Origin: Gemmatimonadota bacterium
GTDB lineage: Bacteria; Gemmatimonadota; Gemmatimonadetes; Palauibacterales; Palauibacteraceae
Length of the DNA: 64,000 bases
Assembly: GCA_039588275.1 (NCBI GenBank)
Contig: JBDHAC010000009.1
Span: 25,883-89,882 of the forward strand
Direction of reading: 5' to 3'
The position numbers and the translations under genes are program-made. How positions within the stretch are numbered: the stretch's first letter is position 1; the number at the start of each line of letters is the position of its first letter. The notes under the pieces are model-generated. The model saw only the letters and a list, made by a program, of their open reading frames with translations. It was not told the origin of the DNA and did not search any database. Shown piece after piece: positions 2,560 to 18,463 of this stretch.

Positions 2560-2763
2560 CGCTTTAATCTGCCCTGCTGGGCCCCTCGGACAACGCCGAG
2601 AGGAATAGCGCCCCCGTTTCCGGGCTTGCCCTGCGGCAGGCTCCCGAGCGGGGGCGCGTTGCATCCCCACCCGCCGCGTCGAATCTTCCGTGCTTCGCCG
2701 CCCCGAACCGGACGGCCACGCTCCGTCGTGGACGAGTCGGTGCATGACGAAAGGAAACGGTCG

Positions 2764-4773
2764 ATGACGTACGCGCGACGTTTGCTCCCCGCGTTGGCGA
2801 TCTTGTACGCCGCCGCTCAGGTGTCCCTGCACGCGCAGGGCGAGGCGGCCAGCATCGAGATCAGTCCTGCCTCGCTGGAGCTCGAAGTGGGAGACCAGGT
2901 GACGGTCGAGGCGCGGGTGCTCGACGCGAGCGGCCACACGGTGGACGCCCCCGTGATGTTCTTCCCCCTGTTCCGGGGTGAGAGACAGCGATTCGCCGGA
3001 CGGAACCTGGACGTGTCCCGGTTCGAGGGCGTCGTGAAGGCGATCAAGGGAGGCGAGTACCTGATCATCGCGATCGTGGCCGATGCGCGAAACGTGCGTA
3101 CTCAGATTCCGGTGAGCGTCGCGTTTCCCCCCCTCGACCGCGTCGACGTGACGCCCGGCGGCGGGCAGATGTACGCCGGGACGTCGGTGCGCCACGCGGC
3201 CACGCTCCTCGACACTGCGGGCGACGTACGGGACAGCGAAGTCCGTTGGTCCACCAGCGATCCGAGTGTGGCGGAGGTCGATCGCTTCGGCATCCTGACC
3301 GCCGGCGCACCGGGTCGAGTCACGCTCGCGGCAGAGGCCGAAGGGATCCAGGGAGCTGTCAGCTACGAGATCGTCGAGAACCCGACGGCCTCGATCTCGA
3401 TCAGCGCCAGCCGGGAGCGGGCTCGCACCGGCGAGGTGGTGCACTTCACGGCCGAGGCGCGTGACGCGACCGGCTCCGAGGTCGAGGGGATGCCGGTGAC
3501 CTTCACGGTTCTGGCGGATGCGGCGCTCGAAGCGACAGCGGACCTTCCCCCCGCCGAGGTGGATGACGAGGGGCGCTTCGTGGCGTATCGCCCCGGCGTG
3601 TACACCGTCGTCGCCAACGTCCCGGGGCACGCCGCGCGGCAGACCGTCGAGATTCACCCGCGTCACGTGTCGCAGGAGATCAAGTTCGTGGGTCAGGGGG
3701 CGGTCCATAACGTGTCGACATCCGACCTGTGGGTGTGGGAGGGAGCGGATGGTCGAGACTACGCGATCACCGGTACGCACCGGGCCAGCGGGGCGGTGTA
3801 CTTCTGGGACGTGACGGATCCGTCCAGCCCCGCTATGACCGATTCGATCGTCGTCGATGCCCGCACGACGAACGATGTGAAGGTCTCCGAGGACGGTGCG
3901 GTGTGCGTGATCTCGCGCGAGGGTGCCTCGAGTCGACGCAACGGAATCGTTATCCTCGATTGCTCCGACCCCAGAGACATCCGGGTCCATTCGACCTTCG
4001 ACGACGAGCTCACGGGCGGGGTCCACAACCTGTTCATCTACCAGGATCACGTGTACGCCGTGAACAACGGGATTCGGTTCGACGTGATCAACATCGAGGA
4101 CCCGACGAGCCCGCAGCGCGTGGGTCGCTTCGAGCTCGATACCCCGGGTCACGCGATCCACGACGTGTGGATCGTGGATGGGATCGCGTACACGTCGAAC
4201 TGGGGTGACGGAGTCGTCCTCGTCGACGTGGGTGGCGGAAACGTCGGTGGCAGCCCCTCGAATCCGGTCGAGATCGCTCGCTTTCGCGACATTGGCGGTG
4301 CTACCCATGCGGCCTTCCCCTACCGGAGTCCGACGGGGAAGTTCTACGTTTTCATGGGCGACGAGATCGGACGCCCCGGGTTCGACGGCCTGGATCAGGC
4401 GCGTACTCCGCAGTTCATGGCCGGCTACATCCACATCGTCGATTTCACCGACCCCGAGAACCCCGAAGAGGTCGCACGCTACGAGATCCCGGAGGCGGGG
4501 TCGCACAATCTGTGGATCGAGGGGGACAAGCTGTACGCGGCCTTCTACAACGGGGGACTGCGCGTCGTCGATATCTCGGGCGAGTTGAAGGGCAACCTGT
4601 ATCATCAGGGCCGCGAGATAGCGGTCTACAAGGCATACGACCCCGACGGAGTGGTCGCCAACGCGCCGTTCACGTGGGGGCCGCAGCCGCACAAAGGGAA
4701 CCTGTTTTTCGCCGAGTACTTCAGTGGCCTGTGGAGTGTCCGCCTGGAGCCTGGGGAGGAGCTGGTCCCCTGA
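2764..4773 (+). CDS. Secreted Ig-like (Big_2) + LVIVD-repeat beta-propeller protein
   Basis: Signal peptide ending AQG; WSTSDPSVAEVD Ig-like motif; repeated V(I)D(I/V)xDPxxP units with His at blade starts (VHN, IHD, THA, SHN). Confidence 0.75.
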   Translation: MTYARRLLPALAILYAAAQVSLHAQGEAASIEISPASLELEVGDQVTVEARVLDASGHTVDAPVMFFPLFRGERQRFAGRNLDVSRFEGVVKAIKGGEYLIIAIVADARNVRTQIPVSVAFPPLDRVDVTPGGGQMYAGTSVRHAATLLDTAGDVRDSEVRWSTSDPSVAEVDRFGILTAGAPGRVTLAAEAEGIQGAVSYEIVENPTASISISASRERARTGEVVHFTAEARDATGSEVEGMPVTFTVLADAALEATADLPPAEVDDEGRFVAYRPGVYTVVANVPGHAARQTVEIHPRHVSQEIKFVGQGAVHNVSTSDLWVWEGADGRDYAITGTHRASGAVYFWDVTDPSSPAMTDSIVVDARTTNDVKVSEDGAVCVISREGASSRRNGIVILDCSDPRDIRVHSTFDDELTGGVHNLFIYQDHVYAVNNGIRFDVINIEDPTSPQRVGRFELDTPGHAIHDVWIVDGIAYTSNWGDGVVLVDVGGGNVGGSPSNPVEIARFRDIGGATHAAFPYRSPTGKFYVFMGDEIGRPGFDGLDQARTPQFMAGYIHIVDFTDPENPEEVARYEIPEAGSHNLWIEGDKLYAAFYNGGLRVVDISGELKGNLYHQGREIAVYKAYDPDGVVANAPFTWGPQPHKGNLFFAEYFSGLWSVRLEPGEELVP

Positions 4774-4842
4774 AGGGCCGGCTCCGGTCCTCTTTCGACG
4801 ACGACGCCTTCCGCGGCCACGGAGACGGCGGGTAGGACCGCG

Positions 4843-5316
4843 ATGAGCCTCGTCCAGATCCGCGTGCGCGTGAACGGAGGGGAACACGAGGGCGACGTCG
4901 AGCCGCGTCTGCTGCTGAGCGACTTCCTGCGTCACGAGCTCGGGCTGACGGGGACGCACGTGGGCTGCGAGCACGGTGTGTGTGGCGCCTGCACCGTGCT
5001 TCTGGACGGAGAGCCCGTCCGGTCCTGTCTCCTGTTTGCGGTGCAGGCGAACGGTCGCGAGCTCACCACGGTCGAGGGATTGGCCGAAGACGGGGATCTT
5101 CACCCGGTCCAGCTGGCGTTTAGGGACGCACACGGGCTGCAGTGCGGCTTCTGCACCCCGGGCATCTTGATGACCGTGGTGGCCTTCCTGCGCGAGCAGC
5201 CGAGCCCGAGCCAGGAACAGATCCGCGACGTCGTCTCCGGCCACCTGTGCCGGTGCACCGGCTACCAAAACATCCTGGAAGCCGTGAAGCTCGCCGCTGA
5301 GCGGGGCTCGCCGTGA
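4843..5316 (+). CDS. Molybdenum hydroxylase small [2Fe-2S] subunit (CoxS/CutS family)
   Basis: GCEHGVCGAC...SC and QCGFCTPG...LCRCTGY motifs. Confidence 0.95.
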   Translation: MSLVQIRVRVNGGEHEGDVEPRLLLSDFLRHELGLTGTHVGCEHGVCGACTVLLDGEPVRSCLLFAVQANGRELTTVEGLAEDGDLHPVQLAFRDAHGLQCGFCTPGILMTVVAFLREQPSPSQEQIRDVVSGHLCRCTGYQNILEAVKLAAERGSP

Positions 5317-7694
5317 GCGAGCGCTGGTTCGGCGCGCCGGTGGTCAGAAACGAGGACCCACGGCTTCTCGCGGGCCAGGCGCTATTCGTGGACGACGTCC
5401 AGCTCCCGGGGCTTCTGCACGCGGCGTTCGTCCGCAGCGATCTCGCGCACGGACGTATCCGGAGTCTCGATCTTTCGGCTGCCCGCGCGCACCCGGGCGT
5501 CGTGGGCGTGTACTCGGCCGAAGACCTCGGAGACCTGTGTATCGCAGGACCCGTTCTGGTCCCGCCGCCTCCGATCGAGCGGCTGGAGTTCCACGCTCGC
5601 ACCCCATTGCCCCTCGCACGGGACCGAGTGCGTCACGTCGGCGAGGCCATCGCGGTCATCGTGGCCGAGAGCCGTTACACGGCCGAGGATGCGGCGGAAG
5701 CCGTGCAGCTCGACCTCGAGCCGCTGGACCCTGCCGTGGCGCTGGAGGCCGCTCTCGCGCCCGACGCGCCTCTGGTGCACGAGGACCTGGCCTCGAACCT
5801 GGCTGCGCACGTGATCCAGGAGAAGGGTGATTACCGTGCGGCGCGCGAAGCAGCGGATCGTGTCATCCGCCGACGCTTTCGATATGACAGGGGGGTCTCC
5901 GGGGCGCTCGAGAATCGCGGCATCGTGGCCTGGTGGGATCCTCACGATGGACGTCTTTCGGTCTGGGACACGACGCAGGCACCCATCCCGGTGCGCAACG
6001 CGCTCGCCGCCACCTTCGGTCTTTCCGAGTCGCAGGTCCGCGTGATCGCTCCGTTCATCGGCGGCGGCTTCGGACCGAAGATCATGTTCTACGGGGAGGA
6101 GATCATCCTGCCCTGGATCTCGCTCCAACTCGGGCGACCCGTGAAGTGGATCGAGGACCGCTACGAGAGCTTCTTCGCTACCACGCAGGAGCGGGAACAG
6201 ATTCACGACGCCGAGCTGGCGGTGGCCGCGGACGGGACGATCCTCGGGGTTCACGACGAGTTCCTGCACGATACCGGCGCGTACGATCCGTACGGGCTGA
6301 CGGTCCCGATCAACAGCCAGTGCACGCTCCTCGGCCCGTACCGGGTGCCCAGCTACTACAGCGAGTTCAGGGTCGTATTCACGAACAAGCCGATCGTCAC
6401 GCCCGTGCGGGGGGCAGGACGACAGCACGGCGTGTTCGTAATCGAGCGCCTGCTAGATGCGGCGGCAGGCGAGCTCGGCATCGACCGGGTCGAGATCCGC
6501 CGTCGTAACTACCTGGATCCGGAAGACTTTCCGCACGATCACCAGATCCTCTTTCAAGACTCGGCGCCCCTCACGTACGACAGCGGCAACTACGCCCCGG
6601 CGCTCGAGCGCGCCGCGGATCTGATCGGGTACGAAGCGTTCCCGGCCGAGCAGCAGAAGGCGCGGGACGACGGCCGCCACCTGGGGTTGGGGATCGTCTC
6701 GTACGTCGAGGGAACGGGGATCGGGCCTTACGAGGGTGCGCGGGTGACCGTGGAGCCGAGCGGCACCGTGTCCGTGGTCACCGGCGTCGGCACGCAGGGC
6801 CAGGGCCATTTCACCGTGTTCGCGCAGGTCGTGGCCGACCAGCTCGGGGTCGACCCGGCGCACGTCCGGGTCGTCACCGGCGATACGATGGAGTTCCACT
6901 GGGGAACGGGCACTTTCGCGAGCCGCGGGGCGGTGGTGGCCGGGAGCGCCTGCCACGCCGCCGCGCAGGCCGTGCGGGAGAAGATCTTCAGGCTCGCGAG
7001 CCACCTGCTCGAGGTAAGCGAGGATGATCTCGAGCTGGCGCATGGACGAGTGACCGTGAAGGGGGCGCCCGATCACGGATTCGACCTGAGCGAGCTGGCG
7101 GCTCGGGCCAATCCGCTTCGGGGCGCCGTGCGCCCCGGCACCGAGCCCGGGCTCGAAGCGACGTCGTATTTCGGGCCGGACCGGGGCAGCACGGCCAGCG
7201 GTGTGCACGCGCTGGTCCTGGAGGTGGATCCCGAAACGGCGCTCGCGAAGATCCTTCGATACGTCGTCGTGCACGACTGCGGGGTCGTGATCAATCCGAC
7301 GATCGTCGAGGGACAGATCCATGGAGGAGTAGCGCTCGGGATCGGAAACGCGTTCTACGAGCAGCTCCACTTCGACGAGTCCGGCCAGCTCTCGAACGCC
7401 TCGTTCATGGATTACCTGCTGCCGACCGCGACGGAGGTGCCCCCGATCGTGGCCGAGCACATCGAGACGCCGTCGCCGCTCAACCCGCTCGGCGTGAAAG
7501 GCGTCGGTGAGGCGGGGGCGATACCGGTGGCCGCCGCGTTCGCGCAGGCGATCGAGGATGCTCTCGCGCCATGGGGGATCGAGGTGCTGGAGATCCCGCT
7601 CAGCCCGCAACGCCTGTTCGACCTCCTCGAGAGGGCTTCGGGGGAGAGCCCCACCGAGGGTAAGCCGGGGGAGACGGAGGAGGTGACTCCATGA
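5313..7694 (+). CDS. Molybdenum hydroxylase large molybdopterin subunit (xanthine dehydrogenase/CoxL-like, not form I CODH)
   Basis: GGGFGPK, QGQGH, TFASR, KGVGEAG; active-site loop reads PVRGAGR rather than AYxCSFR; GTGA overlap with the small subunit. Confidence 0.93.
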   Translation: MSERWFGAPVVRNEDPRLLAGQALFVDDVQLPGLLHAAFVRSDLAHGRIRSLDLSAARAHPGVVGVYSAEDLGDLCIAGPVLVPPPPIERLEFHARTPLPLARDRVRHVGEAIAVIVAESRYTAEDAAEAVQLDLEPLDPAVALEAALAPDAPLVHEDLASNLAAHVIQEKGDYRAAREAADRVIRRRFRYDRGVSGALENRGIVAWWDPHDGRLSVWDTTQAPIPVRNALAATFGLSESQVRVIAPFIGGGFGPKIMFYGEEIILPWISLQLGRPVKWIEDRYESFFATTQEREQIHDAELAVAADGTILGVHDEFLHDTGAYDPYGLTVPINSQCTLLGPYRVPSYYSEFRVVFTNKPIVTPVRGAGRQHGVFVIERLLDAAAGELGIDRVEIRRRNYLDPEDFPHDHQILFQDSAPLTYDSGNYAPALERAADLIGYEAFPAEQQKARDDGRHLGLGIVSYVEGTGIGPYEGARVTVEPSGTVSVVTGVGTQGQGHFTVFAQVVADQLGVDPAHVRVVTGDTMEFHWGTGTFASRGAVVAGSACHAAAQAVREKIFRLASHLLEVSEDDLELAHGRVTVKGAPDHGFDLSELAARANPLRGAVRPGTEPGLEATSYFGPDRGSTASGVHALVLEVDPETALAKILRYVVVHDCGVVINPTIVEGQIHGGVALGIGNAFYEQLHFDESGQLSNASFMDYLLPTATEVPPIVAEHIETPSPLNPLGVKGVGEAGAIPVAAAFAQAIEDALAPWGIEVLEIPLSPQRLFDLLERASGESPTEGKPGETEEVTP

Positions 7695-8578
7695 AGCCGC
7701 CTCCGTTCGACTACGTGGCTCCGTCGAGCCTGGCGGAGGCGCTCCAACAGCTCGAGGAGGGCGGGTTCGACGCCCGTCCGCTCGCGGGCGGGCAGAGCCT
7801 GATCCCGATGCTGAACTTCCGATTGGCTCGAGCGACGCTCCTCATCGACCTGAACGGCGTGGACGAGCTCTCTTTTCTCCATGTCTCCGATGACGGCTCT
7901 CTGCGGATCGGCGCCATGACGCGGCAGCGCGCGGTGGAGCGCTCGGAGGATGTGGCTCGCGCGGCACCGCTGCTCGCCGAAGCCCTCGGTCACGTCGCGC
8001 ACCCGCAGATCCGCAACCGGGGCACGATCGGGGGCAGCCTCGCACATGCGGACCCGGCGTCGGAGCTCCCCGCCGTGATGCTCGCGCTCGGGGCGCGGTT
8101 CCGGGTCGAGGGAGTGAACGGCGATCGCTGGATTCCCGCCGCCGAGTTCTTCTTCGGGCCGTTCATGGCGGCGCTCGACCCGGGGGAGTTGCTGGTGGAG
8201 ATCGAGGTGCCGGCGCTCGAGAACGGGGACGGGTGGGCCTTCGAAGAGGTCGCGCGGCGCGCCGGAGACTACGCGCTGGTCGGGGTGGCCGCGCAGGTCC
8301 GTGTTGATGGGGCCGGAGTGTGCTCGAGCGCCGCGCTCGGATACGTGAACGCCGCCGCGACCGCGAGCCTCGCCCCAAGCGCGGCCGCGATCCTCGTCGG
8401 TGAGGCCCCGACGCCGGAGAGAATCGCCGAGGCCGCGCGGGCCGCGGCGACCGACGACTGTGAGCCTCCGTCGGACATCCACGCCTCCGAGGCGTATCGT
8501 CGACGCCTGGCGGAAGTGCTGACGCGCAGGGCGCTGGATCGGGCCTTCGCGCGAGCCGCGGAGGCACACGAGCCGTGA
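7691..8578 (+). CDS. Molybdenum hydroxylase FAD subunit (CoxM/CutM family)
   Basis: MKPPPFDY, AGGQSLIPMLNFR, IRNRGTIGGSLAHADPASE; ATGA overlap. Confidence 0.95.
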   Translation: MKPPPFDYVAPSSLAEALQQLEEGGFDARPLAGGQSLIPMLNFRLARATLLIDLNGVDELSFLHVSDDGSLRIGAMTRQRAVERSEDVARAAPLLAEALGHVAHPQIRNRGTIGGSLAHADPASELPAVMLALGARFRVEGVNGDRWIPAAEFFFGPFMAALDPGELLVEIEVPALENGDGWAFEEVARRAGDYALVGVAAQVRVDGAGVCSSAALGYVNAAATASLAPSAAAILVGEAPTPERIAEAARAAATDDCEPPSDIHASEAYRRRLAEVLTRRALDRAFARAAEAHEP

Positions 8579-10128
8579 TGGCGCGTGGCCCCGGTGAAGG
8601 GGCCGGCGACGGGAACGCTCTGCCCGGCGTAGAGCGCGTCGGCGATCTGGTACAGCTCACCGCATCTCTCCCCCCGGGACCTCTGGTAAACGACGACATC
8701 GCGCCTACCCCGCTCAGCGAGCGCACGTGGAACGTGTGGCACATTGCCTCGCTGTGGGTGGGGATGAGCGTCTGCATCCCCACCTACATGCTGGCCTCGA
8801 GCATGATCGAAGCGGGCATGAATTGGTGGCAGAGCTTGCTGGCGATCCTGCTGGGGAACGCCATCGTTCTCGTGCCCATGGTGCTGAACGCGCACGCGGG
8901 AACCCGCTTCGGTATTCCGTTCCCCGTGTTCGTACGTGCCCCGTTCGGTCCGCGCGGAGCGCACGTCCCCTCGCTCCTCCGTTCGGTGGTAGCGTGTGGC
9001 TGGTTCGGGATCCAGACGTGGATCGGAGGACTCGCCATCCACGCGCTCATCGGGATCCTGTGGGCGGGGTGGGATGGGCTCGGTGGCGGCTGGACCTTCA
9101 TGGGGTACGGCGTCCCGCATTACCTCAGCTTCGGGCTGTTCTGGCTCATCAACATGTACTTCGTGTGGCGGGGTACGGAGTCGATCAAGTGGCTGGAGAC
9201 ACTGGCTGCGCCGTTTCTGCTCCTGATCGGGATCGTCTTGCTGGTCTGGGCGATCGGGCGCGTGGGCGGGCTCGGACGCGTCCTGAGCGAGTCGAACCAG
9301 CTGATGAGCTCTGGACGCACCCTGCCTCCGAGTCGCTTCCTGCTCACGCTGTTCGTCCCATGGCTGACCGCCATGGTCGGCTACTGGGCGACGCTGGCCC
9401 TGAACATCCCCGACTTCACCCGCTACGCGAAGAGCCAGCGCGATCAGTCTGTCGGGCAGGCGCTGGGGCTGCTGACGACGATGCCGCTGTTCGCCTTCAT
9501 CGGTATCGTCGTGACGAGTGCCACCGTGGTGTTGTACGGCGAGGCGATCTGGAACCCGATCGATCTCGTGGCGCGGCTCACCGCCGATCGCGGGAGCCCG
9601 GTCCTGGGGCTGTTCGCGATGGCGGTCCTGGCCCTCGCCACGCTCTCCACCAACATCGCGGCCAACGTGGTGGCGCCTGCCAACAGCTTCTCGAACCTCG
9701 CACCGCGAGCCATCAGCTTTCGCACGGGGGGTCTGATCGCCGGCCTCATCGGGATCTTCATCCTGCCGTGGAAGTTGCTGGATGCCTATCAGATGTGGCT
9801 GATCACCTACTCGGGTCTCCTCGGTGCGGTGGGCGGGGTTCTGGTGTGCGATTACGCGTGGGTCAGACGCGGGTGGCTGGAGCTCGTCGATCTCTATCGG
9901 GAAGACGGCTCGTACGCCTATCACGGCGGCATCAACCGGGCGGCCATGATCGCGCTCGGGGCCGGGATCGCGGTCGCGCTCCTCGGACGACTGCACCCGG
10001 GCCTCGCGTTCCTGTTCAACGGAGCGTGGTTCTCGGCAGCGAGCGTGTCGTTCCTGCTCTACGCGTGGCTGATGCGAGACGAGCGCCAGCGGCTCGCGTC
10101 GGCGACCCGCAGTTCGACGGCGGCGTAG
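8575..10128 (+). CDS. NCS1 nucleobase:cation symporter (cytosine/uracil/allantoin/hydantoin permease family)
   Basis: W-x-GMSVCIPTY, GIPFPV, CGWFGIQTWIG, NIPDFTRYA, NIAANVV, PWKL; about 12 hydrophobic segments. Confidence 0.93.
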   Translation: MMARGPGEGAGDGNALPGVERVGDLVQLTASLPPGPLVNDDIAPTPLSERTWNVWHIASLWVGMSVCIPTYMLASSMIEAGMNWWQSLLAILLGNAIVLVPMVLNAHAGTRFGIPFPVFVRAPFGPRGAHVPSLLRSVVACGWFGIQTWIGGLAIHALIGILWAGWDGLGGGWTFMGYGVPHYLSFGLFWLINMYFVWRGTESIKWLETLAAPFLLLIGIVLLVWAIGRVGGLGRVLSESNQLMSSGRTLPPSRFLLTLFVPWLTAMVGYWATLALNIPDFTRYAKSQRDQSVGQALGLLTTMPLFAFIGIVVTSATVVLYGEAIWNPIDLVARLTADRGSPVLGLFAMAVLALATLSTNIAANVVAPANSFSNLAPRAISFRTGGLIAGLIGIFILPWKLLDAYQMWLITYSGLLGAVGGVLVCDYAWVRRGWLELVDLYREDGSYAYHGGINRAAMIALGAGIAVALLGRLHPGLAFLFNGAWFSAASVSFLLYAWLMRDERQRLASATRSSTAA

Positions 10129-11654
10129 TGGGCTCGGGCGTCAGCGGGATCCCACTCGTGGATCGGGCCGTCGCTCATCGTGAGAGGGTCGCGATCCTGG
10201 ATCGCGAAGGCGCGCATTCATACGAGGCGCTCGACCGCCGCTCGGCGGCCTGGGCGGCCGCTCTGCTCGCGGATCGGGCGGATCTCGAGGGGGCGCGCGT
10301 GGCCTATATGGTCCCCGCGGGCGCCGAGTACGTAGCCGTTCAGTGGGGGATCTGGCGCGCGGGCGGGATCGCGGTACCGCTTTGCTCCGATCACCCGCCC
10401 TTCGAGCTGGCGCGGTCGCTCGACGACTCCGGGGCCGAGGCGATCGTGTGTTCGGCCGAAGGCGTGAGCCGTCTGGAGCCGCTCGTCGACGAGCGCGGGA
10501 CTCGTCTTCTCGTCAGCGAAGCCGCCAGGCCGCCCGTCAGCGACGAGCGGCCGGTCCGCGACGGCGGGCTGCCCGAGGTGGAGCCCGGCCGCCGCGCGAT
10601 GATTCTGTTCACGAGCGGCACCACGAGCCGGCCGAAGGGTGTGGTGAGCACCCACGCCATGATCGAAGCGCAGGTGCGGTCCATGCTCGAGGCGTGGGAG
10701 TGGGAAGCGAGCGACCGCATCCTCCATATCCTGCCCCTGCACCATACGCACGGCATCATCAACGCCCTCGCGTGCCCGCTGTGGGCCGGCGCGACGTGTC
10801 GGATGCAGAGGGAGTTCGACGCCCGCCGTGTGTGGGACACGATCGCGGAGGGGGACATCACGCTCTTCATGGCGGTGCCGACGGTGTACGTGCGGCTGAT
10901 CGCCGCGTGGGATGGCGCCGAGTCCGAAGCGCAACGGCGGTGGACGGACGGCGCCGCCCGTCTCCGGCTCATGGTGTCGGGGTCGGCCGCGCTCCCGGCC
11001 AGGGTATTCGCGCGTTGGGAAGAGATCACCGGGCACCGGCTGCTCGAGCGGTACGGCATGACCGAGATCGGTATGGGGCTCTCGAACCCGTTGCGCGGCC
11101 CAAGGCGGCCGGGCACCGTCGGCCGCCCGCTACCGGGGGTCGACGTTCAACTGGTCGACGAGGTGGGTCACCCGGTCACGGACGAGGGCCGGCCGGGCGA
11201 GATCCGGATCCGGGGCCCGGGCGTGTTTCGAGAGTATTGGGAACAGCCCCAGGCGACGCGCGAGGCATTCGCGGGCGACTGGTTCAAGACGGGCGACATC
11301 GCCCAGCTCGAGGGGGGTTACTACCGCATCCTGGGTCGGAGCTCGGTGGACATCATCAAGACCGGTGGATACAAGGTCTCCGCGATCGAGATCGAGGAGA
11401 CCCTGAGAACCCACCCGCAGGTGGTCGACTGCGCGGTCGTGGGTGTCCCGGACGAGGAGTGGGGGGAGCGCGTGTGCGCGGCGGTGGTCCCGACTTCAAA
11501 CCTCGAGATCGAAGCTCTCGACGCCTGGAGCCGCGAGCGACTCGCCCGCTACAAGCTCCCGCGCACCTGGTTGGAGGTGGACGACCTGCCTCGCAACGCG
11601 ATGGGCAAGGTCCAGAAGCCCGCCGTCAAGGCGATGTTCGCCGACGAGTCGTAG
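10128..11654 (+). CDS. matB: Acyl-CoA synthetase, malonate/methylmalonate-CoA ligase (MatB/ACSF3-like)
   Basis: GTG overlaps the NCS1 stop; FTSGTTSRPKG, LPLHHTHGIINALACPLWAGA, RLMVSGSAALP, LLERYGMTEIGM, GRSSVDIIKTGGYKVSA, LPRNAMGKV match the ACSF3/MatB subfamily as I recall it. Confidence 0.82.
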   Translation: MGSGVSGIPLVDRAVAHRERVAILDREGAHSYEALDRRSAAWAAALLADRADLEGARVAYMVPAGAEYVAVQWGIWRAGGIAVPLCSDHPPFELARSLDDSGAEAIVCSAEGVSRLEPLVDERGTRLLVSEAARPPVSDERPVRDGGLPEVEPGRRAMILFTSGTTSRPKGVVSTHAMIEAQVRSMLEAWEWEASDRILHILPLHHTHGIINALACPLWAGATCRMQREFDARRVWDTIAEGDITLFMAVPTVYVRLIAAWDGAESEAQRRWTDGAARLRLMVSGSAALPARVFARWEEITGHRLLERYGMTEIGMGLSNPLRGPRRPGTVGRPLPGVDVQLVDEVGHPVTDEGRPGEIRIRGPGVFREYWEQPQATREAFAGDWFKTGDIAQLEGGYYRILGRSSVDIIKTGGYKVSAIEIEETLRTHPQVVDCAVVGVPDEEWGERVCAAVVPTSNLEIEALDAWSRERLARYKLPRTWLEVDDLPRNAMGKVQKPAVKAMFADES

Positions 11655-11765
11655 TTTGACTCCAGCCCGGCGATCCCGCCGGAACGTAGAGGTGCCCGCG
11701 GGGGGCGTCGGCGGCCCGCCGGGACAAGCGCCATCAACTCCGAAACGAAGCGAGGATCCGCCAAG

Positions 11766-12554
11766 ATGAAGCCCTACGACCTTTCCCAACCGTTGAACCA
11801 AGAAGTGTCTTTCTGGCCCTACTACCCGCCGTTCGAGGTCAAGTACATCAAGCGGAAGGCCGAGCACGGGGTGAACGCTCAGTACATCCAGACCTCGAAC
11901 CACATGGGGACACATCTCGATGCGCCGCGCCATTTCGTGACGAACGGGATGACGATCGACGAGATCCCGCTCGATTGGCTATACGGACCGGGGGTCATCG
12001 TCGATCTGTCGGATGAGATGGATGACCTGGGCGCGTACACGCCGGAGATGATCGAGTCGCGGGTCGAGGTGCGGGAAGGCGACCTCCTGATGCTGCACAC
12101 GGGCTGGCACCGCTACGGGCAATTCGGCGAAGAGGCCAACGAGGAGCGCTACATCCACCTGCACCCCGGCGCGCATCCTGACATGGTGCAGTGGCTGATC
12201 GACAAGAAGATCAAGATCTGGGGCGTGGATGCGATCTCGACGGACCACCCCATGAACCTCCCGATCGGGCGATTCCTCGGGAAGGGGACGTTCGGGCATT
12301 GCGATCGCGTGCGCCGCATCGCCGAGAACAAGTTCGGTGGCCCGGAGGGCGTGGCCGAGATCTTCCCCGACGATCACTACCAGCTCACGCACAACGCCCT
12401 CTTCCCGCTGAACTGCATGCACGTCGAGAACCTCGGAGGGCAGATCGAGGCGCCGGAGCTCCAGAATCGGCGGCTCACGATCGGGTGCTTCCCATGGCTG
12501 TTCAAAGGCGGCGAGGCGGCGTTCTGTCGCGTCGTGGCGTTCGTGGAGGAGTGA
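11766..12554 (+). CDS. Cyclase-family metal-dependent amidohydrolase (kynurenine formamidase/isatin hydrolase fold)
   Basis: HMGTHLDAPRH (HxGTHxDxPxH), GVDAISTD, HVENL. Confidence 0.88.
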   Translation: MKPYDLSQPLNQEVSFWPYYPPFEVKYIKRKAEHGVNAQYIQTSNHMGTHLDAPRHFVTNGMTIDEIPLDWLYGPGVIVDLSDEMDDLGAYTPEMIESRVEVREGDLLMLHTGWHRYGQFGEEANEERYIHLHPGAHPDMVQWLIDKKIKIWGVDAISTDHPMNLPIGRFLGKGTFGHCDRVRRIAENKFGGPEGVAEIFPDDHYQLTHNALFPLNCMHVENLGGQIEAPELQNRRLTIGCFPWLFKGGEAAFCRVVAFVEE

Positions 12555-12559
12555 GGGCG

Positions 12560-13795
12560 ATGATCGGTCGGCCCTCTCGACACCGGATGCGGAGCCACGG
12601 CGTCGCTCGGGGACCGCGCGGGCGGAGATCACTTCGCCGCGTCCCGGCGGTCGCTTCGATCCTGATCGCGGCGCTCGCGACCGCGTCGCTGGCGACCGCG
12701 GCCGCGGCCCAGGCCATCGATCGCGAGCAGCTCCTCGACTACATGCGGCAGGTGCGCGCCGACAACGACCTGCCGGGTCTGTCGGTGGCGGTGGCGCTGA
12801 ACGGCGAGATCGCGTTTGCCGAGGGAGTCGGATACGCCGAGCTGGACAATCGCACGCCGCAAACGGGGCGTACCGTTCACAACGTCGGATCCATCTCGAA
12901 GGTGTTGGCGGTCGTGGCGGTCATGCAGCTGGTGGAGCGGGGGAGCGTCGATCTCGACGCCACGATTCAGACATACCTTCCCTACTATCCCGAGAAGGAA
13001 TGGCCGATCACGGTTCGCCACATCCTCACGCATACCTCGGGCACCCGTCACTACAACGGGGTGGAGTTCGGGGAGCACGACCTCCTCGCGCTGCGCCGCT
13101 ACGACGACTTCGAGGAGGCGACTCGGCTGTGGCGCGATGATCCGCTCCTGTTCGAGCCGGGCACCCACTGGCTCTACTCGTCCCACGCCATGAACCTCAT
13201 GCACGGTATCGTGGAGACCGCTTCAGGGCTCGGGTTCGAGGACTACATGCGGACGTACGTATTCCAGCCCGCCGGCATGCTGGCGACGCAGTTCGATGTG
13301 CCATCGCGGATCATCAACAACCGGGGCCACGGCTACGTGCGCGAGGAGGGGGGTAGGTTCGTGCACGCTCCGCCCGAAGATCCGAGCTACAAGTACGCCG
13401 GCGGCGGCATTCTCTCCACCGTCGAGGACCTGGCGCGCTTCGGGCTCGCCCTGAACGACGGGAAGCTCTTGCGGCCGGAGTCACTGGCCGAGATGTACAG
13501 GCCGCAGCTGGATTCGTCCGTCAGGCGGTTCGCCCGGAACTCGGAACCGCAGCCGCTAGGCCACCGACAGGCGCTCGCCTGGTGGATCCGGACGGATCCC
13601 GCCGGCCGGGAGTTCCCGAGCCACACGGGCACCGTGAAGGGCACGAGATCCTTCATCGGCAATTACCCCGAGCACGGGCTCGTCGTGGCGCTCCAGGCCA
13701 ACACCCTCCCGCTGGACTCGGTGCGCTACGGGGTCGCGATCGCGCAGATGTTCTTGCCGGCCGCGGACAGCCCTGACGGCACCGGCGGGCCCTGA
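12560..13795 (+). CDS. Exported serine hydrolase, beta-lactamase class C/PBP fold
   Basis: SISK (SxxK), LTHTSG, YSS, HTG motifs; Ala-rich signal peptide; start may be later (12587). Confidence 0.85.
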   Translation: MIGRPSRHRMRSHGVARGPRGRRSLRRVPAVASILIAALATASLATAAAAQAIDREQLLDYMRQVRADNDLPGLSVAVALNGEIAFAEGVGYAELDNRTPQTGRTVHNVGSISKVLAVVAVMQLVERGSVDLDATIQTYLPYYPEKEWPITVRHILTHTSGTRHYNGVEFGEHDLLALRRYDDFEEATRLWRDDPLLFEPGTHWLYSSHAMNLMHGIVETASGLGFEDYMRTYVFQPAGMLATQFDVPSRIINNRGHGYVREEGGRFVHAPPEDPSYKYAGGGILSTVEDLARFGLALNDGKLLRPESLAEMYRPQLDSSVRRFARNSEPQPLGHRQALAWWIRTDPAGREFPSHTGTVKGTRSFIGNYPEHGLVVALQANTLPLDSVRYGVAIAQMFLPAADSPDGTGGP

Positions 13796-13805
13796 GCCCG
13801 AACCC

Positions 13806-15230
13806 GTGGATCTCGTCCTCCTCCCCGCGCACGAACAGACGCGACTCGTTCGCGTCGGAGAGGTGTCGGCGGCCGAGCTTCTGGATGCGTGCATGGCGCA
13901 GGTCGAGCGGCACAACGAGGCGGTCAACGCCGTGGTGACCCTGAACGAGCGGGCGCACGACGACGCCCGCGCGATCGACGAGGCGCTGGCACGCGGCGAG
14001 GACCCCGGTCCGCTCCTCGCTCTTCCGGTCGGCGTCAAGGATGTGACCGACACGGCCGGGATCCGCACCACGTACGGCTCCAAGCTCTATGCCGATCACG
14101 TCCCCGAGGAAGACGCGCTCGTGGTGCGCCGCTTTCGGGATGCGGGCGCGGTGATCCTCGGAAAGACGAACACGCCGGAGTTCGCGGCCGGCGCCAACAC
14201 GTCGAACGAGGTGTTCGGCGCCACGCGTAACCCCTGGAACCTGGAACGGAGCGCCGGGGGCTCGACGGGCGGCGGAGCCGCCGCCCTCGCGACCGGGATG
14301 ATCTCGCTGGCGCACGGAACCGACCTGGGCGGATCGTTGCGGATCCCCGCGTCCTTCTGCGGCGTGGTAGGTCTGAGACCCACCGCGGGGCTCATCCCCA
14401 CCTATCCGGCCGGCTACCTGTGGGACGATCTGCACGTGACGGGGATTATGGCGCGCGCGTCGGCCGACGTGGCGCTCTCGCTCCACGCGCTGTCGGGACC
14501 GAGCCCGCTATCACCGATGACCAGTCCGCTTCAAAGAGGCGGGATCCAGAGCATGCTCGCCGAGGCCGACCTGTTCCAGAGGCGGTTCGCGTACTGCCCG
14601 GATGTGGCCGGCAGCGGCATCGATACGAGTGTGGAATCGCGCTGCCGCGAGGTCGTGGAGATGCTCCGGGAGTGGGACGTGGACGTGGACGAGATCGAGC
14701 TGGATCTCGGCTATTGCCGGGATGCGTTCCTGGCGCTCCGAGCTTACGGCCTGGTCGCGCACCTGTTCGACGGCCTCGATCGCATCGACGATTACGGTCC
14801 CAACCTGAGCGCGAACCTGAAAGCCGGGCTCGCGGTCACGATGCGCGAGCTGGGCGCGGCCGAGGCTGCAAGACGCCGGGCCCGGCAGGAGATGCTGGCC
14901 CTGTTCGAGCGCTACGCGGTGATCCTGACGCCCTGCACGGCGGTCTCTCCGTTTCCCGTCGAGCAAAATTACCCGGAGGCGGTCGCGGGCAGACCGATGG
15001 AGACGTACGTGGACTGGATCGCCCCCACGTTCGTACTGAGCCTCCCGGGACTGCCCGTGGCCTCGGTCCCGGTAGGGCTGGACGACGAGGGTCTGCCCGT
15101 GGGGCTCCAGATCGTGGCCCCGCCGTTTCGCGAGACGCGCGCGCTGGCGATCGCGGGCGGGATCGAGGCGGAGCGGTCGATCGGCACGCCGGCGCTGCTC
15201 GCGCTCGACGGTGAGGATCCGACGCCATGA
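13806..15230 (+). CDS. Amidase signature family enzyme
   Basis: GVKD, GKTNTPEF, GGSTGG, GTDLGGSLRIPA (Lys-cisSer-Ser triad), GLPVGLQIV. Confidence 0.93.
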   Translation: MDLVLLPAHEQTRLVRVGEVSAAELLDACMAQVERHNEAVNAVVTLNERAHDDARAIDEALARGEDPGPLLALPVGVKDVTDTAGIRTTYGSKLYADHVPEEDALVVRRFRDAGAVILGKTNTPEFAAGANTSNEVFGATRNPWNLERSAGGSTGGGAAALATGMISLAHGTDLGGSLRIPASFCGVVGLRPTAGLIPTYPAGYLWDDLHVTGIMARASADVALSLHALSGPSPLSPMTSPLQRGGIQSMLAEADLFQRRFAYCPDVAGSGIDTSVESRCREVVEMLREWDVDVDEIELDLGYCRDAFLALRAYGLVAHLFDGLDRIDDYGPNLSANLKAGLAVTMRELGAAEAARRRARQEMLALFERYAVILTPCTAVSPFPVEQNYPEAVAGRPMETYVDWIAPTFVLSLPGLPVASVPVGLDDEGLPVGLQIVAPPFRETRALAIAGGIEAERSIGTPALLALDGEDPTP

Positions 15231-16408
15231 GCGATCACGAGGCGTGTGTCGAGTTCCTCCAGCGGCTGATCCGAACACGGAGCATGCCCGGAGAGGAAGC
15301 CGAGATCGCCCAGCTCGTGAAGGTCGAGATGGAGGGTTTGGGCTACGACGAGGTGGGGATCGACGCGGCCGGCAACGTGATCGGACTGCTGCGTGGCAGC
15401 GGGTCGGCGCCGACGGTGATGTTCAACACGCACCTGGATCACGTCGACGCCGGAGACCCGGCCGACTGGCCGCACCCGCCGTTTGGCGGCGAGATCCACG
15501 CGGATCACGTGTGGGGACGCGGCACGGTGGACATCAAAGGACCGTTGGCGGCGCAAGTGTACGGTGTAGGCCGCCTCGCTGCCGCCGGCGAGCGTCCACC
15601 CGGGGATGTGTACGTCACGGCAGTGGTCCAGGAGGAGGTCGGAGGGCTCGGCGCCCGCTTCCTGGCCGAGGCCCTGCGCCCCGATCTGATCCTGGTGGGT
15701 GAGCCGAGCCGGAACGAGGTGCGCCGGGGCCACCGCGGCCGCATCGAGCTCCGCGTGGCGGTGAAGGGAAGGATGGCGCACGCCTCGATGACGGAGATCG
15801 GGATCAACCCGCTCACCGTCATCGGAAGCTTCCTGGCCGCGCTCCCCGGCCTCCCGCTCCCGGACGATCCCGAGCTGGGGCAGGCGACGATCGCCCCGAC
15901 GTTGATCAGAACCGACCAGGCGAGCGCGAACGTGATCCCGGGAGAGGTGGTCCTGACGCTGGATTGTCGTACGGTGCCCGGGCAAAACGCGCATGACCTG
16001 CGAGAGGAGCTGCTCCCCGTACTGGAGAGAGCGGAGATCCCCGGAACGCGGACCGAGATCGTGATTCCGGAGTTCGATCGCGTGAGCTGGAGCGGGCTCG
16101 AGAAGCGATATCCCGCCGACAACCCCGCGTACGCGTTACCCGCGGATCATCCCGCGGTCCGAAGCGCCACCGGTGTCCTGGCGGCGACTCTCGGGGCCGT
16201 CCCACCGGTCGACGTCTGGCGCTTCGCGACGGATGGCGGCCACTTCGCCGAAGCCGGTCTGACGGTGGTGGGCTTTGGCCCAGGTGATGACCGCCTCGCC
16301 CACACGGTCGATGAAGCGATCGGTCTCGACGAGCTGGAAACGGGTCTGCGCGGGAACGAGGCACTCGCGCGAGGCTGGGGCGCGGCGTACGCGGCTCTCC
16401 TCGGCTGA
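15227..16408 (+). CDS. M20-family metallo-amidohydrolase (ArgE/DapE/YgeY-like)
   Basis: THLDHV, GRGTVDIKG, QEEVG, GEPS, AHTVDE; ATGA overlap with the amidase. Confidence 0.9.
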   Translation: MSDHEACVEFLQRLIRTRSMPGEEAEIAQLVKVEMEGLGYDEVGIDAAGNVIGLLRGSGSAPTVMFNTHLDHVDAGDPADWPHPPFGGEIHADHVWGRGTVDIKGPLAAQVYGVGRLAAAGERPPGDVYVTAVVQEEVGGLGARFLAEALRPDLILVGEPSRNEVRRGHRGRIELRVAVKGRMAHASMTEIGINPLTVIGSFLAALPGLPLPDDPELGQATIAPTLIRTDQASANVIPGEVVLTLDCRTVPGQNAHDLREELLPVLERAEIPGTRTEIVIPEFDRVSWSGLEKRYPADNPAYALPADHPAVRSATGVLAATLGAVPPVDVWRFATDGGHFAEAGLTVVGFGPGDDRLAHTVDEAIGLDELETGLRGNEALARGWGAAYAALLG

Positions 16409-16424
16409 GGAAGACCGGGATCTG

Positions 16425-17891
16425 CTAGCTCACCACGAACTCCGCCACGTGCGCCTCCTCCATCGGCGCGGTGGCGAGTGAAACGCCGACCATGACGATC
16501 GTGTTCGCCAGGATCCCCCAGATGCCCGGGTGCACGTCCGCGAACGAGGCCCCTGGGATCAGGTTCAGCGTCAACGTCACGGCGCCGCCCGCCAACAGAC
16601 CGGCGAGGGCACCGGCCGGGGTCGCTCGCGGCCAGAAGAACGTCGCCAGCAGGAGGGGGAATAGCTGCGCGATAAAGCCGTACGAGAGCAACAGCAGCTG
16701 GACGAGCGACACCTGCAAGACCACAGCGAGCAGGTAGGCGAGCGCCCCGAAGACCACGACGAGGACCTGAATGGCGCGCCGCTCCTGCGCGTCGGTGAGC
16801 TCGCGGCCCGAGATGTTGTCGTAGAAGTCCTTCACCGCCACGGACCCGCTCGCGTGCAGAAGCGCATCTCCCGTCGACATCGACGCCGCCAGGGCGCCCG
16901 CGCAAAACAGGCCCACCACCCAGGGCGGCAGCCCGATGGACGTCACGACGGTCGGGAGGATGGCATCGGCCGGCTCGACGCCCGGGAACGCGATGACGCC
17001 GGAGAAGCCGATGAACAGGATCGGGACGAGAAAGATCAAGAACGTCGGATAGAAGACGACGGTCTTTTTGAGCGTCGGGATGTCGCGGGCCGTGTAGATC
17101 TTCATGAAGTAGTGCGGCCACAAGCTGAAACCGAGGGCGGATATGGCCACCGAGCTGGAGAATGCGCCCCAACTCCAGGGCTCGCCGTTCGCGGCCAGGC
17201 CCGGGGCGCTCAGCATCTGCGGCGCGGCCTCCGCGATCGCATCGAACATGGGTCCCACACCCCCGTACAGCCGGTAGGGGAGGTAGAGGCCCAGACCCCA
17301 TGCCAGGGCCATCATGAACATGCCCTGGAAGGTGTTCGTCCAACCGACACCGAGCACGCCGCTGCGGAAGACGTAGATGAGCACGACGCCGTAAGCGATC
17401 CCGGCACCGGCCCATTCGGGTACGCGCCCCTCGGTCACGACGCTGAACACGTACCCGGCTCCCTCCATCTGGAGCATCAGGTACGGGATGAACGCGATCA
17501 GGGAGAGCACGGCGAGCAAGGCGGGCAGCGAGCGGCTCCGGAACCGGTGCCCGAACAGCTCGGCCTGCGTCACGTAGCCGAAGCGACGGCCCAGCCGCGC
17601 GACCCGCGGACCGAAGAAATACCACGGGACGAGCCCCACGGTGCCGTACGCGAGGATGTAGAACGCGGCGGCCCCCCGCGAGTAGGCCCACCCCGGTCCC
17701 CCCAGAAACGCGAACGCGCTGAAGATCGACGCGCCCATGATGAAGTAGAGGACCAGGAAGCCCAACGAGCGGTCACCGGCCACGTACCCCTCGGTGCTGC
17801 GGGAGACGCGCCGGCCCGACGCGAGACCGATGATCAGCGATGCGAGCAGATACCCGATCGTGACGAGGAAAACAACGAGCCAGGCGGGCAT
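16425..17891 (-). CDS. Sodium:solute symporter (PanF/MctP/YhjB-like)
   Basis: SIFSAFAFLGGPGWAY, GYVTQAE, AASMSTGD; 13 predicted TM segments. Confidence 0.92.
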   Translation of the reverse strand: MPAWLVVFLVTIGYLLASLIIGLASGRRVSRSTEGYVAGDRSLGFLVLYFIMGASIFSAFAFLGGPGWAYSRGAAAFYILAYGTVGLVPWYFFGPRVARLGRRFGYVTQAELFGHRFRSRSLPALLAVLSLIAFIPYLMLQMEGAGYVFSVVTEGRVPEWAGAGIAYGVVLIYVFRSGVLGVGWTNTFQGMFMMALAWGLGLYLPYRLYGGVGPMFDAIAEAAPQMLSAPGLAANGEPWSWGAFSSSVAISALGFSLWPHYFMKIYTARDIPTLKKTVVFYPTFLIFLVPILFIGFSGVIAFPGVEPADAILPTVVTSIGLPPWVVGLFCAGALAASMSTGDALLHASGSVAVKDFYDNISGRELTDAQERRAIQVLVVVFGALAYLLAVVLQVSLVQLLLLSYGFIAQLFPLLLATFFWPRATPAGALAGLLAGGAVTLTLNLIPGASFADVHPGIWGILANTIVMVGVSLATAPMEEAHVAEFVVS

Positions 17892-18220
17892 CAGTCGGCC
17901 GGTCCTTCGGGGCCCTGGGGCTCATCGCCACGAACGCTCCCCGAGCCGATGTCCGGCTCGGCGGACTCCCGCCCTCCCGCTCGACGGCGCTCCCACGTGA
18001 ACAGCGTCAACAGAACGGCGAACGACAACAGCACGCCCCCGATGACGTACGCCATCGAGAACGGCAGCCCGAGCACGCGCGGCTCGATGCCCGCGAAGCG
18101 CGGGTACACCGGCCACAGCAACGCCAGAAACAGCGCGACGTAGAAGAGGGTGACGACCCGATACACGCGCCGGTCGCCCCGCTCGAGCCGGGTCGGAAAA
18201 ATGCGGGGAGCCTTGCGCAC
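17891..18220 (-). CDS. Small 2-TM SSS partner protein (DUF3311/DUF997-like)
   Basis: GTG at 18220 after AAAGGA; LLWP...EPRVLGLPF motif; stop overlaps the symporter ATG (TGATG). Confidence 0.75.
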   Translation of the reverse strand: MRKAPRIFPTRLERGDRRVYRVVTLFYVALFLALLWPVYPRFAGIEPRVLGLPFSMAYVIGGVLLSFAVLLTLFTWERRRAGGRESAEPDIGSGSVRGDEPQGPEGPAD

Positions 18221-18463
18221 GCAGGAGTCCTTTAGCTGTCTGGGCGACGTCCGGCAGGGCGCGTCAGAGTCCCTGCGCGAGGTCGAAGAATAGGGCCGCG
18301 CGAACCCCGGCCGGTCAAGCTCAGGCCCTTGCACACCGCCGGACGAGTCGCCGCGTCGTTTGATGCGCCGGGTCGCGCTGCCGATCTTCCTGGGCCCGAC
18401 TGGGCCCGACGCCCTGGCCCGCCGCCGGCGGGAAGGCGGTGGAATTGAACAGCGGAGGTATGG

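Follow-up and report, generated by a model that had tools for sequence, protein, structure and literature searches.

A conserved molybdenum hydroxylase, cyclase and amidase gene cluster from an uncultured Gemmatimonadota bacterium: a possible urea-free route from pyrimidines to malonyl-CoA

We have analysed a stretch of 64,000 nucleotides (called the window below) from a Gemmatimonadota bacterium, contig JBDHAC010000009.1, in which nine genes on the plus strand, between positions 4843 and 16408, make up an operon. The genes encode a three-subunit molybdenum hydroxylase (S, L and M), a nucleobase permease of the NCS1 family, a MatB-like dicarboxylate-coenzyme A (CoA) ligase, a cyclase-family metal-dependent hydrolase, and three further hydrolases, namely an S12 serine hydrolase, an amidase and an M20 hydrolase. 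Our proposal, held tentatively and with a little less than even confidence, is that the operon serves the oxidative breakdown of a uracil-type pyrimidine to malonyl-CoA, without release of urea and with enzymes unlike those of the route known from Rhodococcus. The gene families, the intact catalytic motifs, the operon structure and the co-location across phyla are directly visible in the genomes, and from them we infer the substrates.

In the proposed route, the NCS1 symporter would import uracil or thymine, and the CoxSLM-type hydroxylase would introduce an oxo group at C6, to give barbiturate or 5-methylbarbiturate. The cyclase-family metallohydrolase would then open the ring to ureidomalonate, in place of an AtzD-family barbiturase. 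The ureido group would be stripped without free urea by the amidase, in the lineage of the window perhaps by the YgeY-like M20 hydrolase, and in other lineages possibly by AllF/AllG-type carbamoyltransferases encoded beside the cluster. It would leave as ammonia and CO2, or as carbamoyl phosphate, via malonamate, which would be hydrolysed to malonate; the amidase is the candidate for this last hydrolysis where the M20 enzyme takes the ureido group. Finally, the MatB-like ligase would convert malonate to malonyl-CoA, or in the thymine branch form methylmalonyl-CoA. The urea-free removal via malonamate is suggested because no urease was found and because amidase-signature enzymes and AllFGH act on acyl-ureas. 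The conserved set of genes described below is a minimal enzyme set for the sequence uracil, barbiturate, ureidomalonate, malonate and malonyl-CoA, or for the conversion of thymine to methylmalonyl-CoA.

A gene cluster conserved across phyla

The genes of the window, which has a GC content of 65–71%, were called as open reading frames (ORFs) and then assigned by Pfam and NCBIfam scans. An initial annotation, made from the DNA alone, had described nine co-oriented genes of the families named above, mostly with overlapping stop and start codons, and both points are borne out. Given the first possible start codons, six of the eight junctions overlap, by 4 nucleotides (nt) at S/L, L/M, M/NCS1, cyclase/S12 and amidase/M20 and by 1 nt at NCS1/ligase. 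The other two junctions are gaps, of 111 nt between the ligase and cyclase genes and of 10 nt between the S12 and amidase genes.

About 120 related loci from the same phylum, from Acidobacteriota and from metagenomes were compared. With the cyclase as query, the neighbourhoods of 20 same-phylum loci, 18 Acidobacteriota loci and 80 metagenome contigs were fetched, and the denominators given here are the loci with enough flanking sequence. A cyclase orthologue is carried by 34 of the 301 genomes searched in the phylum, among them 17 of the 23 from the source bacterium's own family, and by 20 of 301 Acidobacteriota genomes. S-L-M adjoins it at all 20 same-phylum loci and at 14 of 15 Acidobacteriota loci, and L lies beside it at 16 of the 18 metagenome loci that extend 5.5 kb or more upstream. 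The amidase gene is likewise adjacent at 18/20 same-phylum and 14/14 Acidobacteriota loci, and at 31/43 metagenome loci that reach 1.7 kb or more downstream. NCS1 is found inside the cluster at 8 of 20 same-phylum and 13 of 15 Acidobacteriota loci, a ligase or a CoA-transferase is present at 17 of 19 same-phylum loci, and many related loci have a CoxG gene between L and M. The conserved unit is S-L-M (often with CoxG), the cyclase and the amidase, with NCS1 and the ligase (or the CoA-transferase) as usual companions. With the cyclase orthologue and S-L-M found together this regularly in two phyla, the gene arrangement is far from chance.

The initial annotation had staked its proposal on the conservation of this neighbourhood, and co-occurrence across genomes is indeed seen for S-L-M, the cyclase, the amidase, the ligase or CoA-transferase, and NCS1. 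It does not extend to the S12 and M20 genes, which are present at 5 of 19 same-phylum loci, all from one genus, and at none of 14 Acidobacteriota loci. Three genomes have contigs with the ligase, cyclase and amidase genes in which S-L-M is missing; in all three an L orthologue (66–70% identity) was found on another contig. In a genome with only the NCS1 and ligase genes, the best L match has 44% identity and is not an orthologue. Clustering of 483 unassigned ORFs from the flanks gave no pyrimidine-specific recurrent family, and no further family recurs among them. The large insertions seen at two loci (L173 and L175 in our numbering, in which L stands for loci, G for genomes and C for contigs) consist of unrelated mobile or defence-type genes.

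Some features of individual clusters should also be recorded. Toxin–antitoxin pairs of RHH/PIN type lie inside the cluster in two phyla: at L111 (10603–11309) such a pair separates the cyclase gene from the amidase gene, and at L061 (1551–2293) one separates the ligase gene from the cyclase gene. In one lineage, a flavoprotein resembling acyl-CoA dehydrogenases (ACADs) is encoded between the cyclase and the amidase (L038 12669–13877, L186 10910–12115 and L189 1279–2484), with weak matches to DszC, SfnB, HsaA-type monooxygenases and ACADs. The metagenome contig L199 (1287–9508) is a near-perfect mirror, with the order ligase-amidase-cyclase followed by cyclase-amidase-ligase, and is probably an assembly artefact.

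Enzymes of the proposed route

The hydroxylase consists of a small [2Fe-2S] subunit of CoxS/XdhC type (S, 4843–5316; Fer2 and Fer2_2, 110.6 bits), a large molybdopterin subunit similar to form II CoxL (L, 5313–7694; Ald_Xan_dh_C, MoCoBD_1 and MoCoBD_2) and a medium subunit of CoxM type that binds flavin adenine dinucleotide (FAD) (M, 7691–8578; FAD_binding_5 and CO_deh_flav_C). It belongs to the xanthine oxidase/CoxSLM family, and the two [2Fe-2S] clusters, the FAD domain, the a/b-hammerhead and the two domains binding the molybdenum cofactor are all present. In the related loci, orthologues of S have 61–76% identity, and those of L, from Gemmatimonadota, Acidobacteriota and Calditrichaceae genomes, have 66–75%; paralogues of L within the same genome have at most 40%. 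The best solved relatives of L are mycobacterial CoxL, quinoline 2-oxidoreductase (Qor) and 6-hydroxypseudooxynicotine dehydrogenase (Kdh), at 466–513 bits.

The active-site loop of L, TNKPIVTPVRGAGRQ, is aligned with AYACSFR in CoxL of M. smegmatis (8uem). The loop, TPVRGAGRQ, is without the cysteine of the form I signature AYxCSFR, so that L falls outside form I CoxL, and 43 of 51 L orthologues keep a loop of this form, in which RGAGR follows Val, Ile or Tyr. The region of the catalytic glutamate reads GVGEAG and is aligned with Qor and CoxL, and 49 of the 51 orthologues share the Glu motif. L scores 905 bits with NF040766 ("aerobic CO dehydrogenase large subunit", CO being carbon monoxide; cut-off 950) and 554 with TIGR02416 (cut-off 991). 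It also stays below the equivalogs of xanthine dehydrogenase (XdhA/PucD/XdhB), of which NF043082 is the best with 423 against 780 bits. For S and M the best equivalogs are glyceraldehyde dehydrogenase models. A CO dehydrogenase identity of S-L-M was considered and rejected, because the active-site loop has no copper-binding cysteine. The near-pass with NF040766 despite the missing cysteine loop makes annotation of L relatives hazardous, and close relatives may have been misnamed CO dehydrogenase in public databases. With form II CoxL, quinoline 2-oxidoreductase (1t3q) and Kdh (7dqx) the enzyme shares the S-L-M composition, the cysteine-free loop of RGxG type and the catalytic glutamate, but L belongs to a distinct orthologous group, which is linked to a permease and hydrolases instead of cox accessory genes.

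The permease (8575–10128) is an NCS1 nucleobase/hydantoin:cation symporter of FUR type, which exceeds the cut-off of TIGR00800 (358.2 against 353.1 bits) and stays below those of the allantoin, cytosine and CytX equivalogs. It presumably imports the substrate of the pathway. Permeases of the NCS2 family adjoin the cluster at 6 of 14 Acidobacteriota loci and at L120, L127 and L146; a gene for an S1/P1 nuclease lies beside the L146 cluster.

The cyclase-family hydrolase (11766–12554; PF04199, 134.9 bits) is our proposed ring-opening amidohydrolase and an analogue of barbiturase. Its metal motif HxGTHxDxPxH is intact, with the sequence SNHMGTHLDAPRHF, and occurs in 60 of 60 orthologues. The arylformamidase model TIGR03035 gives 65.7 bits against a cut-off of 223, and the matches to KynB (58 bits) and isatin hydrolase (39 bits) are weak. 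These two enzymes have the metal motif in common with the cyclase of the window, and isatin hydrolase opens a cyclic amide, but the cyclase is part of a separate orthologous group, 74–89% identical across phyla and always seen in the gene context of the present cluster. At E <= 1e-40 the group numbers 781 clusters, of which the best 120 are all 78–89% identical and come from metagenomes and uncultured metagenome-assembled genomes (MAGs), labelled "cyclase family protein", "kynurenine formamidase" or "arylformamidase". One Acidobacteriota orthologue (G373:C8:1277524-1278306) has an in-frame TAG, and may be a pseudogene or reflect a sequencing error.

The amidase (13806–15230; PF01425, 326.9 bits) has the amidase-signature motifs VGVKD, GGSTGG and DLGGSLRIP, whose residues we take to be the Lys/cis-Ser/Ser triad. 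The serine motifs are found in 50 of 50 orthologues, and so is the pattern [GA]xKD. It does not exceed the cut-off of any named equivalog (AtzE NF006631, 263 against 461 bits; allophanate hydrolase TIGR02713, 144 against 511), and its match to malonamidase E2 (1ock) is only 128 bits. We propose that it is a ureidomalonate amidohydrolase, a malonamate amidohydrolase, or both. Amidase-signature enzymes can act on acyl-ureas, an example being the oxalurate amidohydrolase HpxY, according to an excerpt of PMC12625717.

A link to acyl-ureas is also seen in the neighbours of the cluster. Genes for AllF (FdrA) and AllG adjoin it at L117, L161 and L167, and at L138 AllG lies directly 3' of the cyclase gene on the same strand. 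In E. coli, AllF and AllG are subunits of the oxamate carbamoyltransferase that cleaves oxalurate (excerpt of PMC11326118). Taken together, these links point to an N-acyl-urea as the probable product of ring opening. As a caveat, the adjacency in the lineage of L161 could be merely positional, and in the genome of the window AllF and AllG are unlinked to the cluster, on contig C47. One Acidobacteriota locus (L240, 6105–14969) carries a paralogous array of AllF(FdrA), AllG, cyclase (42% identical), M, S and L (31–52%), preceded by a thiolase/DUF35 pair. It represents a second, more distant type of cluster with cyclase, molybdenum hydroxylase and carbamoyltransferase.

The M20 hydrolase (15227–16408) is a YgeY-like, cytoplasmic and lineage-specific enzyme, with 264 against 321 bits for NF009555 and 201 against 321.5 for TIGR03526, which places it outside YgeY proper; it is 34% identical to the true YgeY of the genome on contig C39. 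In the reductive breakdown of urate, the step at which a ureido group is cleaved is carried out by YgeY, as stated in part of the preprint 10.1101/2025.05.19.654654. The M20 enzyme is a possible hydrolase of the ureido (carbamoyl) group.

The S12 hydrolase (12551–13795; PF00144) is LACTB-like and also lineage-specific. It starts with the GTG at 12551 or alternatively with the ATG at 12560, and its N-terminus, signal peptide-like, is basic and then hydrophobic and ends in AQA. In all ten orthologues examined, the N-terminus, judged by eye, is of this kind. Among solved proteins LACTB is the best match (172 bits), and the class C beta-lactamase model NF033085 gives 70.6 bits against 415. The protein is probably exported, and would therefore not take part in the cytoplasmic middle steps, which the initial annotation had ascribed to unrelated enzymes. 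In a sister-genus genome, a second PF00144 paralogue is encoded between the ligase and M genes (L115, 12381–13616).

We now come to the ligase (10128–11654), an AMP-forming enzyme of MatB type. Its GTG start, which overlaps the NCS1 stop codon TAG by 1 nt, is most likely the true start, and the triplet at position 10125 is GTA, which is not a start codon. The best solved relatives are the MatB malonyl/methylmalonyl-CoA synthetases 4fuq (260 bits) and 3nyq, in a range of 246–263 bits, and the match to oxalate-CoA ligase is 221 bits. This agrees with the MatB-type assignment of the initial annotation, and the enzyme is a probable malonyl/methylmalonyl-CoA synthetase. It shares the two-domain ANL architecture with MatB/ACSF3, its nearest structural relatives, but stays below the curated cut-off of the malonyl-CoA synthase model PRK07514 (372 against 558 bits). 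It is single-copy in its genome, where the next matches have at most 33% identity, and as a query to the ESM Atlas it returned only generic acyl-CoA synthetase clusters.

When the ligase was used as query against a single genome of each species, 80 loci with 46–60% identity were obtained, in Acidobacteriota, cyanobacteria, Dehalococcoidia, Gemmatimonadota and other groups. The full cluster is present in only two of them, L038 and L056 (the latter from a Candidatus Palauibacter MAG), which marks the ligase as a widespread enzyme that has occasionally been drawn into the cluster. A few other loci have it beside the amidase, or beside a cyclase gene and the amidase, and L002 has the NCS1–ligase pair alone. 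Orthologues that stand alone or adjoin an amidase occur in many other phyla, a distribution that fits a common product such as malonate. Loci without the ligase often have a family III CoA-transferase beside the cyclase gene (L120, L145, L148–L151, L153–L156, L160, L161 and L205). Its nearest named relatives are the succinate-glutarate, mesaconate and oxalate (YfdE, Frc) CoA-transferases and SUGCT, all of which act on dicarboxylates, and this argues that the CoA step would activate a dicarboxylic acid made by the hydrolases and not the imported ring.

Searches of the whole genome, which is 85.8% complete, bear on the middle and last steps. No match to AtzD/barbiturase (PF09663) was found in this genome or in the 301 genomes of the phylum, as the initial annotation had supposed from the operon, by a model that was silent in the control genomes too. 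Nor was a convincing urease found in this genome, where the PF00449 hit (25 bits) is an Amidohydro_3 protein, or in ten other cluster-bearing genomes, which gave partial matches of 22–28 bits or nothing. The classical, urea-releasing last step is thus unlikely. The malonyl-CoA decarboxylase model PF05292 has no match in the genome, and it matched no control genome either.

Purines seem to be handled elsewhere in the same genome, since a separate cluster for them lies outside the window on contig C39 (L243, 5572–18254). This cluster includes a Se-dependent xanthine dehydrogenase (874 against 830 bits) and the true YgeY (455 against 321), together with a YgfK-like protein, an allantoinase/hydantoinase-like enzyme, SsnA (just below its cut-off), a carbamoyltransferase and two pyridoxal phosphate enzymes. 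It resembles the reductive uric acid pathway that the same preprint (10.1101/2025.05.19.654654) describes, in the part concerned, for gut anaerobes; here it is found in a sediment MAG of another phylum.

Weighing the explanations

The pyrimidine route combines an entry by permease and hydroxylase with an exit by a dicarboxylate-CoA step, a fit to the oxidative pyrimidine pathway that the initial annotation had pointed out and that stands after the present analysis. A number of findings weigh against it. The kinship of L to characterised enzymes is distant, the best equivalogs of the NCS1 protein are allantoin permeases, themselves below the cut-off, and the adjoining NCS2 permeases are nearer to xanthine than to uracil permeases, one of them exceeding the cut-off of PbuX. 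The ligase falls short of the malonyl-CoA synthase model and is in the cluster at only 3 of 14 Acidobacteriota loci. The PF09663 searches lacked a positive control, and with urease missing the textbook release of urea has to be replaced by an assumed ammonia-releasing step. Finally, 3 of the 34 genomes with the cluster also have dihydropyrimidinase-like genes that exceed their cut-off. Over the phylum, dihydropyrimidinase exceeds its cut-off in 66 of 301 genomes (a tally that includes the unpublished genomes G182 and G157); the anticorrelation between the cluster and this reductive pathway is weak and confounded by kinship, and is given no weight here.

The main rival keeps the same logic with another N-heterocycle, such as a 2-pyridone or a cyclic-imide precursor leading to glutaconate or succinate, another oxo-pyrimidine, or a ring of hydantoin or pteridine type. 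We regard this as unlikely, though well within reason: the substrate is not fixed by any of the sequences, L groups with form II CoxL, quinoline oxidoreductase and Kdh, types that act on varied heterocycles, and the ligase score below the MatB cut-off, the relatives of the CoA-transferase and the ACAD-like flavoprotein of three loci (L038, L186, L189) are further points in its favour. What speaks against it is that NCS1 and NCS2 permeases carry nucleobases and ureides, that the AllF/AllG neighbours imply an N-acyl-urea, which simple pyridones and imides do not contain, and that the closest characterised relatives of the ligase use malonate and methylmalonate; moreover, no ring-cleaving oxygenase or reductase is recurrent in the flanks. 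A branch of purine or allantoin ureide breakdown, in which the cyclase would open a hydantoin or parabanate ring to oxalurate, the amidase or AllF/AllG would lead via oxamate to oxalate, and the ligase or a YfdE/Frc-like transferase would form oxalyl-CoA, is improbable in our judgement. The allantoin permeases among the NCS1 equivalogs, the xanthine-permease-like NCS2 neighbours, the match of the ligase to oxalate-CoA ligase and that of the CoA-transferase to YfdE and Frc are consistent with it, as are the oxalurate activities ascribed to AllF/AllG of E. coli and to the amidase-signature enzyme HpxY in the excerpts of PMC11326118 and PMC12625717, respectively. However, MatB is the better match of the ligase (260 against 221 bits), the molybdenum hydroxylase would have no evident role, and the conserved core is without allantoate-processing enzymes. 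The purine cluster of contig C39, which encodes an allantoinase-like enzyme as well as a true YgeY, is already present in the genome, and the oxalate exit is further weakened because no oxalyl-CoA decarboxylase exceeds its cut-off in this 85.8% complete genome, the best match having 135 bits against 739.

Two further readings place the hydroxylase differently. Furoate catabolism pairs a ligase with a molybdenum enzyme, and here too the ligase might act first, activating an imported heteroaromatic carboxylate whose CoA thioester would be hydroxylated in the style of 2-furoyl-CoA dehydrogenase or 4-hydroxybenzoyl-CoA reductase, with the hydrolases acting afterwards. The position of the ligase gene directly between permease and hydrolases, the NCS1–ligase pair that stands alone in L002 and the ACAD-like gene of some clusters would suit such an order, but the ligase is missing from 11 of the 14 Acidobacteriota clusters that keep S-L-M, cyclase and amidase. 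A CoA-transferase of dicarboxylate type substitutes for it, before or after the cyclase gene, and ligase orthologues of equal identity (50–60%) stand alone in many genomes that have no cluster, so that we find this order very improbable. Hardly any credence is given to the last reading, that S-L-M is an aerobic CO dehydrogenase or a general aldehyde oxidoreductase whose linkage to the hydrolases is incidental. It could draw on the NF040766 score, just under the cut-off, and on the glyceraldehyde dehydrogenase models for S and M; against this stand the PVRGAGR loop, conserved as described and without the Cys-Ser-Phe of Cu-Mo CO dehydrogenases, the failure to see coxD, coxE or coxF accessory genes, and the linkage to the cyclase, which is kept in two phyla and in metagenomes.

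Flanking genes and relation to known systems

Upstream of S, a terminator-like hairpin with an 11-pair stem and a T-rich tail (4758–4785, plus strand) follows a gene for an LVIVD/Big_2 protein (2626–4773). Since this hairpin precedes S, the 5' end of the operon probably lies here, with S as the first gene; as evidence it is weak, because terminator-like sites in the region are no more numerous than in shuffled sequences. A promoter scan of the region found none, and Rfam gave no match in 4000–19000 at E <= 1. The LVIVD/Big_2 gene is syntenic in a sister genus and lies outside the core cluster elsewhere. The same applies to the downstream flank (16425–19525), where an SSF symporter and a small DUF3311 frame on the minus strand, and an RNase Z-like hydrolase of the metallo-beta-lactamase type are conserved in the sister genus, yet stand outside the core cluster elsewhere.

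The chemistry that we propose, hydroxylation of uracil to barbiturate, hydrolytic opening of the ring and release of malonate, is that of the oxidative route of Rhodococcus erythropolis JCM 3132, which comprises uracil/thymine dehydrogenase (EC 1.17.99.4), barbiturase (EC 3.5.2.1) and ureidomalonase (Soong et al. 2001, 2002, as cited in an excerpt of PMC3758960). The window differs in having a cyclase-family metallohydrolase where the AtzD-family barbiturase stands, no AtzD match having been found, and in that urea is probably not a product, no urease having been found. It also differs in including a permease and a dedicated malonate-type CoA ligase, replaced by a CoA-transferase in relatives. 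With the ureide pathways of cyanuric acid and oxalurate (AtzD-AtzE-AtzF, HpxY and AllFGH) it would have in common an amidase-signature enzyme for an acyl-urea after ring opening, and AllF/AllG genes lie beside some clusters. In contrast to those pathways, however, the amidase stays under the AtzE cut-off, the ring opener is of another fold family, and a molybdenum hydroxylase comes first.

The activities of uracil/thymine dehydrogenase and ureidomalonase have been known since the 1950s. To our knowledge there is no sequence for ureidomalonase, and we know of no genes for the classical uracil/thymine dehydrogenase. In full-text literature searches, likewise, neither an assignment of genes to uracil/thymine dehydrogenase nor a barbiturase of cyclase type was met with. 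The long-orphan uracil/thymine dehydrogenase (EC 1.17.99.4) may be encoded by these clusters in the shape of a form II CoxL enzyme, together with a non-homologous barbiturase from the cyclase family and a urea-free stripping of the ureido group by the amidase, the YgeY-like M20 enzyme or AllF/AllG, as a widespread and oxygenase-independent pathway from pyrimidines to malonyl-CoA in uncultured Gemmatimonadota, Acidobacteriota, Calditrichota and others; to this wider proposal we give appreciably less than an even chance.

The source is an uncultured marine-sediment bacterium, and the route is little studied. If the proposal is true, genes would be assigned to the uracil/thymine dehydrogenase and ureidomalonase activities, and the cyclase-family enzyme would stand as a clean non-homologous replacement for the barbiturase of the AtzD family. 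Many proteins from environmental genomes that now bear the names "CO dehydrogenase large subunit" or "kynurenine formamidase" would acquire a function, and a route for the recycling of nucleobases would be added to abundant uncultured phyla of soil and sediment.

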